NCBI RefSeq assembly: GCF_014349205.1
Contig: NZ_JACSOF010000032.1
Coordinates: 1-24,000, forward strand
Direction: 5' to 3'
Length of the DNA: 24,000 bases
From: Photobacterium sp. BZF1
Lineage (GTDB): Bacteria; Pseudomonadota; Gammaproteobacteria; Enterobacterales; Vibrionaceae
Below the pieces are notes generated by a model. That model was not told the DNA's origin, made no database searches, and was given only the letters and a program-made list of their open reading frames with translations. Within the stretch, counting starts at the first letter, position 1. Each line of letters starts with the position of its first letter. This document shows positions 6,879 through 12,180 of the stretch, piece by piece. A program made the translations under genes and the position numbers.

Positions 6879-7544
6879 TATCTTCAGAATAATCCCAAAT
6901 CTGCTGAGCCAGCGCGGCATTGACGAATTTTGGGGATGTTTTGTGTAGCGCAGGGGCCCCAAATCCCGTATCTTGGGCCATAGAACCCTTGCGGTTTTAT
7001 CTCTGGCGCCGTTGCGGCTAGCAACTGTTAACGGCAGCCATTATTAATGGAAGAGGCTAAACAGCGTGAAGCCAACCTCCCTAAGGAAGGTTTTACACGT
7101 TAGAAATGTAAGGTTGACACCACCTTATCAAAGCTGCATTATAGAGACTAATAATGCATCGATTGCATATAAAGCCCCACCTGCCAGGTGAAATCTGGGG
7201 TTCCTGGCCCACTCTAATCCTTAGCTGTATGACGCAGCTCCAATTTGCATCATGTGATGCAGCATCAAGATAATGCGTCCTCGTTGCGCCCAAAATTTAC
7301 TCTAAGCACACTCAACCAATCTATCTTGCTTTCAATACCTGCAATCTCTTTGCGGTGTCTTCGCACACCACAACAAAATGAACCCGTAAGCAATCCAATA
7401 ATTTGATTCGTTTCAATCACTCAATCATCATCTTGAATAGACGCTTTGATACTTTCAGCGTCATAAACTCCACCATTATTCCAAACAGCCAACGTGTTAG
7501 TGCTCTTGACTGCGCTTTAAGTATATACACCTAGACCGTAGGTC

Positions 7545-7590
7545 CTGAAATGAAACCCGCCGCAGGCGGGACGCAACTTTCAGCTCTTTT
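7545..7590. terminator. two-tier GC hairpin with flanking U-tracts on both strands (orphan bidirectional terminator-like element)
   Basis: The outer stem is CTGAAA (7545-7550) with TTTCAG (7578-7583). The inner stem is CCCGCC (7556-7561), loop gca, GGCGGG (7565-7570). On the plus strand CTCTTTT follows. On the minus strand TTTCATTTC follows the inner stem. No annotated gene ends here. Confidence 0.45.
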
Positions 7591-7705
7591 CCAATAACTA
7601 CTCAGGCGGAAGTGAAATAAAGTTCGCCCTCAAATAGCCCGTTTTAGAGACAGTTCGGCGCTTGTGATAGTGGATGTTGGCCACCGTATGGTGAGACGCA
7701 ACATA

Positions 7706-7865
7706 CCCCTCAGGCCACCACAAGGCAGTTGTTTCTGGGTAATACCGATTGATAGAAAAAGCGTGGGTGTCGCTTTAACTACCCCTCCCCCACTCATACA
7801 GGAAAGCGCAGTCGTTAGTACGACACGAGAAGATGCAGACTTCACTTTCTGGTGGCCCTTAGGGG
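7706..7865. other. ~160-nt domain closed by a long-range inverted repeat (possible ncRNA or recombination-site architecture)
   Basis: CCCCTCAGGCCACC (7706-7719) pairs with GGTGGCCCTTAGGGG (7851-7865), giving 6-bp and 5-bp perfect sub-stems. Internal hairpins include AAGCG-tgggtgt-CGCTT (~7759-7777) and GTCGT-tagt-ACGAC (~7811-7824). A third GGCCACC copy lies at 7679-7685. Confidence 0.3.
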
Positions 7866-7969
7866 CATTAAATTTTGCTTAGCACTGGCCGATTCCGCCG
7901 AAAGGCTTGCCAACATCAGGGGTTGGATAAGAGAAAAGAGATAGAAGTCGAATATGTTATGGAGGATTG

Positions 7970-8926
7970 ATGATGAGAAATTTAAACACGCCCAATTTTA
8001 ACTTGGGTAATCGACGCATGGATTTGGCGCTGAAAAATGCACTTATAGAACTAGGGCAAAGCTATAAGAGCGTGGCAACCAACCATGGACACATAAAACA
8101 ATTCACATCCTATTTGTTTAAAGAGCATGGGATCCGCCAACTGGCCAAAATTGAGCATGGCCATGTCGCCGCCTATGCCAACGTTCTTGTAGAGCGTTAT
8201 GACCAAGGGGAGATCAGCGCCTCCACAGCCCAAAATGCGCTCAGTGCCATCAACTCAGCGATGAGTCAGGCGAGGCAAGATGAAGTATGCAGAGTCACAG
8301 GAAAAGAAGCCGGATTGCCTGGCCGTACTTTTGTCGCAACCAAAGATAAAAGCGTTGACGATGATAAACACATGGCAATAAAAGCTAAGGTCTCAGAACG
8401 ACTGGCCAGCCAACTCGACCTGCAACGCACCTTGGGATTGAGATTCAAAGAAAGTTGCTTAATCAATGCGAATAACATTCTCAAACAAGCAAAGAGCCAT
8501 GGGACCGTTCGAATCATAGATGGCACAAAAGGTGGTCGCCCAAGAGAGGTACCGATTACATCCCCAAACCAAATGGAAGCCTTGAAAGTAGCAGCACAAA
8601 TTCAGGGGGAGGATAAATCGATGATCCCACCATCCATGACCTTCAAAGATTACCGGGAAGCCGCGAATAACGAAATTCGCGGCAAGATGGCCGGGTTCCA
8701 TGGAGAAAGGCACACCTATGCCAATGACCGATACGAAAAACTGTCAGGCTTACCAAGCCCTGTTCGTGCCGGCATTGAGCATGGTAAAGCCCATCACCAA
8801 TACATCTCACAACAACTATCAATATCAATATCGGAAGCCAAAGCCCTTGACCACGCGGTACGCTTGCAAATATCAAACGAACTCGGCCATGGCCGTATTG
8901 ATGTCACCAACAGTTATTTGGGGTAG
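7970..8926 (+). CDS. tyrosine recombinase / integrase-family protein
   Basis: The catalytic signature appears in order: LGLRFKES (Arg), TKGGRPREV (Lys/Arg), FHGERHTYA (H-x-x-R) and LGHGRIDVTNSYLG (His...Tyr nucleophile). A Shine-Dalgarno GGAGGA lies at 7961-7966, with ATGs at 7970 and 7973 (the track lists the TTG at 7967). Confidence 0.8.
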   Translation: MMRNLNTPNFNLGNRRMDLALKNALIELGQSYKSVATNHGHIKQFTSYLFKEHGIRQLAKIEHGHVAAYANVLVERYDQGEISASTAQNALSAINSAMSQARQDEVCRVTGKEAGLPGRTFVATKDKSVDDDKHMAIKAKVSERLASQLDLQRTLGLRFKESCLINANNILKQAKSHGTVRIIDGTKGGRPREVPITSPNQMEALKVAAQIQGEDKSMIPPSMTFKDYREAANNEIRGKMAGFHGERHTYANDRYEKLSGLPSPVRAGIEHGKAHHQYISQQLSISISEAKALDHAVRLQISNELGHGRIDVTNSYLG

Positions 8927-8928
8927 AT

Positions 8929-9231
8929 ATGTCACCAGAATCTAAAAAAATTATCGACTTTCACTTTGGTGTCTATCGTCGTCAAGGAGCAAAAAAATAT
9001 CGCAAAAAGCAATACAGACGGTTACTCAATCTCCTGAATGATATTTTTAGGCATGAGCCCTCAGCACATGGTGAGTTAGAACGAATAGGACGAAAACAGG
9101 TTATCGGTTACTGGCAACGCACAAGAAATGAAACGGACCAAACACGATTAGAAAAATGGCGTGTTTTAGACCGATTATTTCAGGCAATAAAGAAGCCAAG
9201 CCCTCCAAGGCCAAGAAGAAAAGACAGTTAA
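8929..9231 (+). CDS. small basic protein translationally coupled to the recombinase
   Basis: The ATG lies 2 nt after the recombinase stop. The 100-aa protein is Lys/Arg-rich. The segment LLNLLNDIFRHEPSAHGELERIGRKQVIGYWQR loosely parallels the recombinase N-terminal segment IKQFTSYLFKEHGIRQLAKIEHGHVAAYANV (core-binding/SAM-like pattern). A strong terminator follows the gene. Confidence 0.6.
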   Translation: MSPESKKIIDFHFGVYRRQGAKKYRKKQYRRLLNLLNDIFRHEPSAHGELERIGRKQVIGYWQRTRNETDQTRLEKWRVLDRLFQAIKKPSPPRPRRKDS

Positions 9232-9242
9232 AATGCAGCCTT

Positions 9243-9279
9243 AAGCAAGTCTTTCATCTGATTAGACTTGCTTATTTTT
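9243..9279 (+). terminator. rho-independent terminator of the recombinase operon
   Basis: AAGCAAGTCT (9243-9252) pairs with AGACTTGCTT (9264-9273), a 10-bp perfect stem, followed by ATTTTT. Confidence 0.8.
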
Positions 9280-9788
9280 GCTCTCGAGGTCGAAATCAGA
9301 GGCAGCATGCAATAGATAAATCCAAGCTACTTACGCGTTTAAAATCATGATCTAGCTCTCTCGTATCCACCAACATCAGCTTAGTCATATTGAATCACTT
9401 TTACTCCCCTCTTATTTATAACGAGCAGATGAAATCAACGCTGAAAGGAAATGCAGTGAACACGACAGTGTAAGTTAGTTAAGCGATGAAGAGCAGGAAG
9501 ATTGGGGCAACTATACTGAAAATTTATCGAAAGAACTGCAATCGTAACAAACCTCTGCTCTTATCCGTTTAGGGAGTATTCCATAATTCTTATCAGTTAA
9601 TTATTAATTCAGGCAAGTTAGTACATAAAATATTCATATACTTCAGTTACCCTCGCCATTCTTGCTTCTTCAATGATCTTAGCATGCATGACCAACATCC
9701 CATAGACAGGGAATAAACCAAATGAAGCTAGATAGTTATAACGAAGCTGCGAGTAACCACTTTGAGATTCACTAGGAAATAATCGGCA

Positions 9789-9992
9789 ATGAAAAACACA
9801 CATTTTATCGAAGTAAAACGGTACTTGGAGCGTCAATATTCTGTACCAGCAGCTTACATCGATAGCCTGAAATCAGCACCACTTAAAGGATATCCCAATC
9901 AATATGCAGTTCTCGTAGAAGCGTTTGATAAAGAGTGGAGTTTCTTGGTTGATACCAGCTCGTCGAAAATCAACATCACAGAAGTCAAATAG
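9789..9992 (+). CDS. hypothetical small protein (67 aa)
   Basis: ATG-initiated ORF with protein-like composition and no recognisable motif. It overlaps a TTG-initiated antisense ORF that looks less plausible. Confidence 0.35.
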   Translation: MKNTHFIEVKRYLERQYSVPAAYIDSLKSAPLKGYPNQYAVLVEAFDKEWSFLVDTSSSKINITEVK

Positions 9993-10160
9993 CGCATATA
10001 CCAAGAACACTATTATGTGATCGCTCAATGCTAGCCCATTCGGAGTTACACCTGGTTGACATCTCAGTTCATCAAAGCATCATTTGACTTATTTTTTCTT
10101 CTACTTGTAATGTTTTCTATAAGATAGGTGTTACATCAATTTAAGTTATGAGGCAACGGA

Positions 10161-10730
10161 ATGTTTAGCTTACTACTTGGCTTAGTATTGTTTCTTGGTA
10201 TTCACTCGATTTCAATCATCACACCGCTATATCGAGAGAAGTTCGTAAAGAAAAGTGAAACCGTGTACAAAGCCGTTTATTCTTTGCTGTCTTTTCTGGG
10301 TATCTATCTTATTGTTACAGGTTTCGGTGCACTCAGGACTGACACAAGCGTTATTTATGTTGGATATCAATCTTTAAGGCCACTAGTTTATCTGTTTATG
10401 CTAGTCGGATTTATCCTCTTTTTTGCTCCCTATTTTCCTGGAAAAATTAAAGCAGTCACAAAAAATCCACAGTTGTTATCAGTAATCTTTTGGGCATTTT
10501 CTCATTTATTAGTTAACGGTAATTTAGCCGATATCTTGTTATTTGGATCTTTCTTAGTGTGGGCCACTGTCGATCTAATTTCGATGAGGAAACGCCATCA
10601 GAGAGTCGTCTCGCCTTTGAAGACCTCTTGGGTGAATGACGTGATAGTCATAGTGCTTGGAACGATTGTTTACGGCACCTTTGCGATGTTTTTACATGGC
10701 TATTTAATCGGTATTCCCTTAATGAGTTAA
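10161..10730 (+). CDS. NnrU-family integral membrane protein
   Basis: The 189-aa protein has about 5 hydrophobic helices. The N-terminus LLLGLVLFLGIHSISIITPLYREKFVKK...YKAVYSLLSFLGIYLIVTGF matches my recollection of NnrU-family proteins. Confidence 0.65.
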   Translation: MFSLLLGLVLFLGIHSISIITPLYREKFVKKSETVYKAVYSLLSFLGIYLIVTGFGALRTDTSVIYVGYQSLRPLVYLFMLVGFILFFAPYFPGKIKAVTKNPQLLSVIFWAFSHLLVNGNLADILLFGSFLVWATVDLISMRKRHQRVVSPLKTSWVNDVIVIVLGTIVYGTFAMFLHGYLIGIPLMS

Positions 10731-10787
10731 CGGTGTCTGTCCTGCTATTAATCAGAGTGCGTTACCCTTACCAACATCGGCGGAAAA

Positions 10788-11197
10788 CCCCTTCCTTCAG
10801 GTGGGGGATGGATAGCCGTTATTGCGTAGCAATAAACCGATTGACAACATAATCAGGGTGCTCGACTACACTGTTTATAAATACAGTGTTCGGAGCTACA
10901 AATGCAAAAATGAACAATGCAACTTTGTAGGAATCTGAGATAACGTTGGTGCAACCAACTTTTTGAATAAACAACACCACGATGGAAGGATTAAAGCTGG
11001 CGCTATGATCCCCCCATCGGTGGTAAAGTATCACCGACCCGTGCCTATGCGCCGGAACGGTATAGTCCGTCTGACTGGCGGCATGTTGCTAGATACCCCC
11101 CTTAAATCGGCATCGGATACTTCGGTATCAGGCTCTAACGAGCCGTCGTTGCTGACTTCTGCGGCCTGCTCTAGAATCTCCTCCTTCAGGTGGGAGA
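10788..11197. other. non-coding segment bounded by two direct-repeat hairpins with identical loops (candidate IS200/IS605-derived PATE/MITE or structured ncRNA)
   Basis: The 13-mer TCCTTCAGGTGGG occurs at 10793-10805 and 11182-11194. Copy 1 has stem CCCC (10788-10791) with GGGG (10803-10806). Copy 2 has stem TCTCC (11177-11181) with GGAGA (11193-11197). The interior contains GATAC-TTCG-GTATC (11116-11129, a UUCG tetraloop on the plus strand), TCGGTG...CACCGA (11017-11037), ACACTGT...ACAGTGT (~10869-10890), and two C6 runs each followed by ATCGG (11010 and 11096). Confidence 0.4.
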
Positions 11198-11388
11198 GCA
11201 GTCAATTAAATCAAAGTAACAAGAAAAATGTGAGCTCAGATCCTCAAGTTTCTGATGCAAATACTCAGAGATTGGAGACAACTCTCCCATCGCATTTAAC
11301 AGGGTTACACGATAAGTCATTTATCTTCCTTGATAATGTGGGTTAAGAGCAGCGAGCTTACAGTATAAAGAGTGAGCAGTTCTAGCGA

Positions 11389-12180
11389 TTACATCCCTTT
11401 GAACAAACTTTGAGATGCACGGCTCACAGGGAGCTTGCTTTCTCCAACGTGAACAAACATTCTACCAGCAAAGTCTTTGTTTACTTTGCTAATTTTACAC
11501 ACTTGTACCACGCTTGAACGGTGCACTTGCCAGAACTGTTCTGGGTTAAGCTGCCCTATCAACTCTTTCAGCGATGTGCGAATCAAATACTCCTGCACTT
11601 TGCCTTGTCCTTGTTGGGCATACACAGAAACGTATTTTTCTTCCGCTTTGAAATACAACACATCAGACGTGGCGATCAGATGAATATCTTCCCCTTGCGT
11701 CGCTTTGATCCACTGAAGAAATTGCGGCGTTTGTGGAGCGGATAATCGTTGCAGCTGCTCTAATAGGCTGCTCATCTGCACATTGCTACTTTCTTGCTCT
11801 CGCTTAGCAAGGCGAGCTTTCACTCTTTCACACGTCTTCAGGAGGCGCTCATCCGAGATAGGCTTCAACAAATAATCGGCGGCATTTTGCTCAAAAGCTT
11901 TGATGGCGTAATCATCGTACGCGGTAACAAACACAATCAAAGGTGGGTGGGAGAGTTGATTAAGTTTTTGCGCTAATGTCATGCCATCCAAAACTGGCAT
12001 ACGAATATCGAGAAACGCAATGTCAGGTTGGCTTTGCTCAATGGCTTGCAACGCTTGTTCACCATCCGCGACTTTGGCTATCACCTCTAGCTCTGGCCAC
12101 ACTTCAGCTAGGCTTTTATCAAGATGACGCCTCAATAGCGGTTCATCATCAGCAATAATGGCAGTAAACTCTCTATTCAT
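11389..12180 (-). CDS. two-component response regulator, LytTR DNA-binding family (AlgR/LytR-like)
   Basis: The receiver domain shows [20 protein letters not shown] and ADYLLKP. The C-terminal LytTR domain shows [22 protein letters not shown]...[12 protein letters not shown]. Confidence 0.9.

Follow-up and report, generated by a model that had tools for sequence, protein, structure and literature searches.

What occupies the 658-bp gap between two convergent genes of Photobacterium sp. BZF1, and does it belong to the host or to mobile DNA? The gap lies in a 24,000-nucleotide stretch of contig NZ_JACSOF010000032.1 (positions 1 to 24,000 of the forward strand; hereafter the window), between nnrU (10161-10730, + strand; Pfam NnrU match with E 2e-45) and a LytTR response regulator gene (11389-12180, − strand). 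A preliminary description, made from the letters alone, had stated that these two genes converge, which the gene calls and the Pfam match bore out. The space between them had, however, been treated as one uniform intergenic region, whereas we found four distinct pieces:

10731 to 10771: spacer, ending in TTAC
10772 to 11205: derivative of an insertion sequence (IS)
11206 to 11320, − strand: start (~38 codons) of a DUF2268 gene that has been truncated
11321 to 11388: native spacer after the regulator gene

We conclude that 10772-11205 is very probably a non-autonomous, internally deleted member of an IS200/IS605 lineage that carries only tnpB, with IS608-type ends, similar to palindrome-associated transposable elements (PATEs) and with its omega-RNA gene retained. 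A non-autonomous IS200/IS605 PATE with an orphan omega-like RNA had been among the earlier candidates, and it is supported by homology of the left end (LE) and the right end (RE), by the TTAC and TCAA at these ends and by a covarying scaffold. On this reading, the gap would consist of a transposon relic and the stump of a DUF2268 gene inactivated by insertion, rather than of a regulatory or non-coding RNA (ncRNA) locus of the host.

Ends of the element and its tnpB-bearing relatives

The window contains exactly two copies of the 13-mer TCCTTCAGGTGGG (10793 and 11182), which have the same orientation and are separated by 389 bp, and a repeat search lengthened the pair to 23-nt direct repeats (10786-10808 and 11175-11197, 83% identity). 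Both copies can be folded as an imperfect hairpin with a TTCA loop and unlike outer stems. Exact-match, repeat and fold analyses thus agree with the earlier claim of two direct-orientation hairpins that share a 13-mer and differ in their stems. To place these hairpins we relied on homologues. A megablast search of 7000-11300 against plasmids gave no match, and homologues were recovered in the sensitive blastn mode only: a search of 10731-11210 returned a Photobacterium damselae megaplasmid (in several places) and an Aeromonas veronii plasmid, with ~75% identity over 10917-11205. The matching plasmid DNA comprises the 3' end of tnpB, including a CxxC...CxxC zinc finger and the RDNVGA RuvC-III motif, and ~200 nt downstream of it, and the similarity stops after ...GCAGTCAA. 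On the other side, 10772-10886 aligns with the left ends and leaders upstream of the relatives' tnpB, including the hairpin homologous to repeat copy 1 and the sequence GATTGACAAC; the closest left end is that of Vibrio metschnikovii (88.7% over 115 nt).

Further family members were gathered through TnpB homologues, which are publicly annotated as 'RNA-guided endonuclease InsQ/TnpB'. In every family locus, blastn placed the start of the LE at element position 1 (10772) and the tip of the RE at position 434 (11205). The full-length relatives are ~1458 bp long and come from Vibrio, Photobacterium, Aeromonas, Colwellia and Endozoicomonas as well as from metagenomes, and the element in the window is colinear with them from end to end. 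The TnpB of the V. toranzoniae member (P0121) passes the NCBIfam model NF040570 (134 bits against a cut-off of 100), and tnpB is the sole gene in 8 of the 9 family loci. One metagenomic IS with the same LE hairpin core (L029) carries a Y1 tnpA. Elsewhere the family is mobile and multi-copy, with 5 LE, 5 tnpB and 6 RE places in a single P. damselae replicon.

The alignment with tnpB-bearing elements of other genera identifies the first hairpin of the preliminary description as the LE palindrome and the second as the RE palindrome, and allowed us to assign the following features, where GL and GR are the left and right guide tetranucleotides, CL and CR the cleavage sites, and IPL and IPR the imperfect palindromes:

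10768 to 10771, + strand: TTAC, left cleavage/target tetranucleotide (CL), adjoining the LE; presumed transposon-adjacent motif (TAM) of the family TnpB
10772 to 11205, + strand: whole 434-bp, tnpB-deleted IS200/IS605 derivative (PATE-like), with the blastn ends common to all family loci
10784 to 10809, + strand: LE recognition module, with GL AAAA (10784-10787), IPL CCCCTTCC-TTCA-GGTGGGGG (10788-10807) containing a T.T mismatch, then AT
10819 to 10835, + strand: second LE hairpin, TTATTGC-GTA-GCAATAA, a perfect 7-bp stem read from the sequence
10841 to 10846, + strand: TTGACA, conserved −35-like hexamer of the tnpB leader, a putative promoter element
11174 to 11205, + strand: RE recognition module, with GR GAAT (11174-11177), IPR with TTCA loop (11178-11196), a spacer and CR TCAA (11202-11205)

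The two ends thus carry sub-terminal imperfect palindromes (10788-10807 and 11178-11196) in direct orientation, without terminal inverted repeats, and the palindromes are homologous to the LE and RE hairpins of 9-12 related elements. Among 12 aligned left ends (alignment A5), 5 of the 8 stem pairs of the LE hairpin show compensatory changes, a score reached by none of 500 shuffles, and the T.T mismatch is kept in 10 of the 12. The RE hairpin, which corresponds to helix 9/10 of the RNA alignment described below, covaries too. At all nine family loci the RE ends in ...GCAGTCAA or GCATTCAA, after AGAATCC and the hairpin, and the sequences diverge directly past TCAA. The left flank ends in TTAC at 6 of 7 family loci, the seventh being that of A. 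veronii, which has TTAT together with a compensating change of the LE guide tetranucleotide. Indeed, GL is AAAG in most members; A. veronii has AAAA, paired with its TTAT flank, but the copy in the window combines AAAA with TTAC and therefore has a mismatch at position 4 (C). At the position of the second LE hairpin, P. damselae and V. toranzoniae have GTTGCTGC...GCAGCAA, and GATTGACAAC is conserved between the window, P. damselae, V. toranzoniae and V. metschnikovii.

Among IS200/IS605 elements, IS608 of Helicobacter pylori serves as the reference for transposition of single strands by 'peel and paste'. It inserts 3' of TTAC (PMC3201880), its GR and CR are GAAT and TCAA, and a second LE hairpin has been described for IS608, ISDra2 and IS605 (PMC5934647). 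The family shares with IS608 the direct-orientation sub-terminal imperfect palindromes, the lack of inverted repeats and of a target duplication, the tetranucleotides CL TTAC, CR TCAA, GL AAAG (family consensus) and GR GAAT, the AT after the LE hairpin and the second LE hairpin downstream. In contrast, the distance between cleavage site and hairpin foot is 19 (LE) and 10 nt (RE) in IS608 but 16 and 9 nt in the element of the window, the hairpin sequences are unrelated, and the family carries tnpB alone in most loci. The copy in the window additionally differs from IS608 in having neither tnpA nor tnpB, and in its LE guide tetranucleotide AAAA.

Two groups of relatives deserve separate mention. 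The copies of V. toranzoniae (L010, 2370-3827) and of the P. damselae megaplasmid (L007, 334-1789), whose TnpBs are 93% identical, both lie directly downstream of a gyrA-like gene although the genera differ, and their 15-nt flanks are unlike; the 599-kb P. damselae 'plasmid' also has gyrA, topoisomerase and ftsZ homologues. In V. metschnikovii (L021-L025, ~1220-2412 and 2581-3662), the copy with the closest LE has a tnpB that ends early, at codon ~329, and another TnpB-type IS lies on the opposite strand, giving nested IS200/IS605 elements.

The tnpB remnant and the putative omega-RNA scaffold

A tblastn search with P0121 aligned its residues 335-429 to 10876-11166 (61% identity, E 2e-24) and found no counterpart of residues 1-334, and the LE-side homology to V. 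metschnikovii ends at element position 115 (10886). About 1 kb, comprising tnpB codons 1-334, has therefore been deleted, leaving the LE, the tnpB 5' leader, the tnpB tail with an in-frame stop and the omega-RNA scaffold. The interior of the element is accordingly divided as follows:

10876 to 10983, + strand: deletion joint (~10876-10895) and tnpB 3' remnant, with the second zinc-finger CxxC, the RuvC-III motif and an in-frame TGA (10936-10938)
10984 to 11205, + strand: putative omega-RNA scaffold (reRNA, right-end RNA), 10 helices, reaching the RE boundary
11206 to 11221, + strand: flank-derived ~16-nt stretch TTAAATCAAAGTAACA, a candidate guide by analogy with ISDra2

The 71-aa and 127-aa open reading frames (ORFs) of this region had been described as featureless, which is not entirely so: the 127-aa ORF, and a 38-aa ORF at 10822-10938, read the tnpB tail. 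The internal ORFs are thus the tnpB tail remnant and chance frames, and they gave no Pfam hits. A remnant of a known protein gene had been named in the preliminary description as an argument against its proposal; one half of that picture was found, in the form of the tnpB tail, but it speaks all the more for the PATE reading, not against it. The sole terminator-like call inside the element, at 10945-10959 (GTTGGTGCAACCAAC, then TTTTTG), falls within the conserved coding remnant of tnpB (VGATNFL). It is probably incidental, but could end read-through from nnrU ahead of the omega-RNA scaffold.

For the 3' half, we derived an RNAalifold consensus from the last ~260 nt of nine family members (alignment A4). 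The resulting structure consists of 10 helices with 59 pairs in total, and compensatory double changes are seen in 41 of these pairs; 92% of its cells are paired, compared with 34-48% when the partners were slid by 1-3 columns, and none of 500 shuffles reached the observed values. Of the 59 consensus pairs, 52 are retained in the copy in the window, a number inside the range of the other members (50-59), in which tnpB is still present, and the single-sequence fold of its scaffold has z = −2.0. The UUCG-tetraloop hairpin proposed earlier at 11116-11129 is real, forming helix 7 of the covarying structure with compensatory changes in all five pairs, and 11089-11094 pairs with 11169-11174 in a long-range helix around three hairpins. 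The proposed duplicated module of six Cs and an ATCGG hairpin did not hold up: it was not recovered by the repeat search, and its halves lie in non-equivalent parts of the alignment, one in the coding sequence of the TnpB tail and one in the omega-RNA core. In all nine loci of A4 the structured region overlaps the tnpB tail and conservation ends exactly after TCAA, an arrangement by which TnpB omega RNAs are defined. Position and covariation, together with analogy to known systems, thus point to the 3' half being the omega-RNA scaffold of this TnpB family.

The closest comparison is the omega RNA, or reRNA, of ISDra2, the last ~16 nt of which derive from the DNA flanking the RE (Karvelis et al. 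2021, PMC8612924). There too, the RNA overlaps the 3' end of tnpB and ends at the RE boundary; in the present family the guide would likewise come from the flank, and the TAM would equal the target motif of the transposase. What differs is that scaffold sequence and fold are family-specific here, with a conserved structure of ~220 nt, and that the cognate TnpB has a glycine at the position of the RuvC-II glutamate. Searches with Rfam 15 gave no gathering-score hits in the whole window, and a permissive scan of 10600-11500 returned only a chance-level match to FTX_1 (E 1.4).

A strong conserved secondary structure that is matched by no Rfam model and sits between convergent genes could also be taken for a novel stand-alone ncRNA gene lying between two hairpins and unrelated to mobile DNA, the other candidate of the preliminary description. 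The homologues contradict it. In every one of them the structured region shares sequence with the 3' end of tnpB and stops at the IS boundary, and in the full-length copies the 5' hairpin is part of the left IS end, ~1.1 kb away from the structured region. Moreover, the region is missing at the orthologous locus of close relatives, which have DUF2268 there. We give practically no credence to this alternative, and retain the PATE-like derivative.

The family TnpB itself has a substitution in its RuvC-II site. Six members (P0121, P0125, P0126, P0133, P0136 and P0165) read VVGD at columns ~301-308 of alignment A6, where the canonical TnpB of the window reads IEDL, such that all six have a glycine at the position of the RuvC-II catalytic glutamate. 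TnpB clades with a 'rearranged catalytic site', for example RIIr-5, were catalogued by Altae-Tran et al. (2023, PMC10691335), and the family TnpB matches this type. The nearest solved structures match it at E ~1e-6 only. The glycine substitution makes the family TnpB a candidate for testing rearranged-site nucleases.

Insertion into a DUF2268 gene

On the right, the element adjoins a gene of the − strand that is cut short and ends inside the IS:

11186 to 11320, − strand: truncated DUF2268 gene with ~38 native 5' codons, the final 6 codons and the stop being supplied by the right end of the IS

This stump is a 44-aa ORF (11320..11186) with a Shine-Dalgarno sequence and a 69-nt spacing from the regulator gene as in relatives. 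The response regulator shares 94% identity with a protein encoded on a Logan contig from a related strain (L001) and 88% with V. parahaemolyticus proteins, and in both of these a DUF2268 gene for 211-216 aa follows the regulator at the identical spacing; V. natriegens has no DUF2268 gene after the regulator. In the DUF2268 alignment (A1), window and relative agree up to ...TTTGATTTAA and diverge from there. At the nucleotide level, blastn homology to L001 extends from 17162 down to 11206 and ends there, 1-11205 having no match to the rest of that contig, which puts repeat copy 2 at the breakpoint. The intact DUF2268 gene of L001 preserves the empty site, in which TTAC is followed directly by TTAAATCAAAGTAAC. 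The flanks of the element, CCCTTAC on the left and TTAAATC on the right, share no duplication, and in L001 TTAC and TTAAATC are adjacent. By these comparisons, the element inserted 3' of TTAC inside a DUF2268 gene downstream of a LytTR two-component operon, truncating that gene.

At precisely this site, the DUF2268 gene of L001 contains a 15-nt tandem duplication (5964-5993; GATTTAAGTAACCTC / GATTTAAGTAACGTT, encoding DLSNL/DLSNV), which creates two neighbouring targets of TTAC followed by TTAAATC.

Two other explanations of the repeats were considered. They could be attachment-site or junction repeats of the adjoining strain-specific segment, left by its tyrosine integrase (7967-8926), or terminators of the two convergent genes; repeat copy 2 does lie exactly at the break in homology with the relatives, and the Integrase_1 gene is 2 kb upstream. 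However, in other genera and unrelated contexts, tnpB elements are bordered by the same hairpin modules although that integrase is absent, and the other copies of the motif are IS ends only. As for termination, no T-run follows either hairpin and a terminator scan calls neither. Both variants are hardly tenable in comparison with an origin of the repeats as IS ends. We also considered the repeats as the C-termini of small tandem minus-strand genes (both reading ...SPT-stop, then a Shine-Dalgarno-like AGGAGG or AGGAAG). We rejected this idea because a distance of 389 bp does not preserve the reading frame, copy 1 coincides with the end of no ORF, and the 44-aa ORF upstream has been identified as the stump of DUF2268; a selenocysteine insertion sequence (SECIS) or a frameshift at the TGA was dropped on the same grounds.

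Functional state of the element and the rest of the window

Five observations weigh against the proposed identity. First, no tnpA adjoins tnpB at 8 of the 9 family loci, and in Colwellia (L020) a TnpA-like ORF is found ~1 kb upstream, past an IS1595 transposase gene, such that the mobilising transposase has to be assumed. Second, the twin hairpins are not unusually stable as DNA (z = +0.4 and +0.6 relative to shuffles), and because their energy is no better than that of shuffles, their reality rests on homology and covariation. Third, since no Rfam family matches, the omega-RNA call draws on position, on covariation and on analogy instead of a curated model. Fourth, the plasmids, metagenome contigs, viral contigs and GTDB representatives that we searched contained neither another 434-bp copy nor a near-identical full-length parent, so that transposition of the short form is unproven and deletion in situ equally possible. 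Fifth, the DNA to the left of TTAC is not the remainder of DUF2268 (local alignment no better than with shuffles), which means that the simple insertion picture needs a second rearrangement.

This second rearrangement joined the left end of the element to strain-specific DNA, a segment of at least 11 kb that includes the integrase gene, hipBA and nnrU, and the position of the IS coincides exactly with the edge of this segment. An independent Logan assembly is 100% identical to the window over 20.6 kb, and the arrangement is therefore not an assembly artefact. It is conceivable, though quite improbable, that this segment was captured, and the remainder of DUF2268 lost together with neighbouring genes, through recombination at the IS end or through repair after TnpB and its omega RNA had induced a break at the TTAC donor site, and, separately, that the scaffold was kept for use in trans by a family TnpB elsewhere in the genome.

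How would such an element work? Based on the literature on IS608 and ISDra2, a dimer of the Y1 transposase TnpA would bind both sub-terminal imperfect hairpins on the single-stranded top (+) strand, while GL and GR, directly 5' of the hairpins, would pair with TTAC in the left flank and TCAA at the right tip, where cleavage takes place. The element would then leave as a single-stranded circle and be inserted 3' of a different TTAC, with no duplication of the target. The omega-RNA scaffold would be encoded by the 3' ~220 nt, and the transcript would continue ~16 nt into the flank; this flank-derived stretch would guide TnpB to the TTAC-flanked empty donor site, leading to restoration of the copy. 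Recognition by TnpA and the guide function are what we infer for the family from these models. With tnpB codons 1-334 lost and neither transposase nor nuclease encoded, any activity of the copy in the window would need factors in trans.

Whether this copy could still respond to such factors is a separate issue. One possibility is a still-active PATE that is transposed as a 434-bp unit, with a Y1 TnpA (e.g., that encoded at 5098-5505, or one from elsewhere in the genome) acting in trans and a TnpB from elsewhere loading the omega RNA to defend the insertion. Both ends are indeed complete (GR, TCAA and both hairpins), the number of retained scaffold pairs falls within the range of intact members, and the window contains a Y1 transposase gene at a distance of 5 kb, with the right end of its own IS likewise reading, by eye, GAAT, hairpin and ...GTCAA. 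Read-through from nnrU on the + strand could provide transcription, and PATEs often carry omega RNAs that are used in trans (Meers et al., PMC10055086). On the other hand, GL does not match the TTAC flank, without the compensation seen in A. veronii. The hairpins of the IS605-type element in the window are unlike the twin hairpins, and the TnpBs encoded at 3829-5031 and 1912-3303 share only 24% and 21% identity with the family TnpB, leaving no cognate TnpB in the window; the different hairpins and the different TnpB also ruled out this IS605-type element as the parent. Furthermore, no other short-form copy was present in the searched collections, and a promoter scan of 10500-11600 gave no full sigma-70 match, the −10 region after TTGACA being degenerate by eye. 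Present activity is therefore unlikely. We infer instead that the copy is most likely an inert relic, given the mismatch of the LE guide to TTAC, the lack of a detectable promoter and of a cognate TnpB in the window, and the fact that the DNA on its left is no longer the original target.

Part of this search for copies was made with sequence patterns. The omega-RNA core pattern GTCTGANTGGCGGCATGTTGCT matched one locus in the GTDB genomes (L009), which has no TnpB nearby and was treated as spurious, and scans of metagenomes and viruses with a degenerate LE/RE hairpin pattern returned ends of other, distantly related IS elements and no further copy. The multi-copy behaviour expected of a miniature inverted-repeat transposable element, which had been suggested earlier, thus found no support for the short form, of which no second copy appeared in any collection searched.

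Meers et al. (2023, PMC10055086) describe PATEs, gene-less derivatives of IS200/IS605 elements, which 'often encode omega RNAs' that are acted on in trans. The element in the window resembles them in being short (434 bp), in having both IS ends and no intact ORF, and in the omega-RNA scaffold beside its RE. PATEs are, however, usually recognised as multi-copy families, whereas one copy of the 434-bp form is known, and this form visibly arose when one deletion of ~1 kb removed most of tnpB from a parent element and left leader and tail; it may never have moved as a short unit. We regard it as one more example of the known phenomenon of PATEs retaining guide RNAs, which opens no new question. 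New are the specific lineage, its omega-RNA fold without a match in Rfam 15 and this particular deletion derivative, with nothing falling outside known categories. The comparison defines a TnpB lineage of Vibrionaceae and other gammaproteobacteria by its exact ends, its IS608-type TTAC target (the presumed TAM) and an omega-RNA fold of ~220 nt, and this definition can be used to annotate other genomes.

The remainder of the strain-specific segment was surveyed as well. Positions 1-11205 have no counterpart beside the LytTR operon in L001, V. parahaemolyticus or V. natriegens, and encode a PEP-CTERM protein, two TnpBs, HipBA, an Integrase_1 protein (PF12835; 7967-8926) and NnrU. Relative to L001, the distal part of DUF2268 and the following genes are missing, which encode a peptidyl-prolyl isomerase (PPIase), a methyl-accepting chemotaxis protein (MCP), a DCC1-like protein and DUF4344. 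The GC content falls to 0.35-0.41 over 8900-10600, and the left boundary of the segment lies beyond the contig.

The two TnpB genes of this segment are as follows. On the − strand, 1912-3303 is a divergent TnpB-like ORF of 463 aa (146 bits with the NCBIfam model guided_TnpB) with no adjoining tnpA, 33% identical to the 400-aa TnpB. The other belongs to a complete IS605-type element (3755-5570; boundaries by eye) with a Y1 tnpA (5098-5505, + strand) and a divergent tnpB (3829-5031, − strand). It is situated precisely between the stop codon of a hipB-like gene (3752-3754) and the start of hipA (5571), and thereby splits a hipBA toxin-antitoxin operon. Its right end, on the minus strand, reads GAAT, hairpin and ...GTCAA, and at its left end GGTA precedes the hairpin on the 5' side and CCAT forms the flank, which by eye is consistent with the IS608 rule of pairing between guide and cleavage site.

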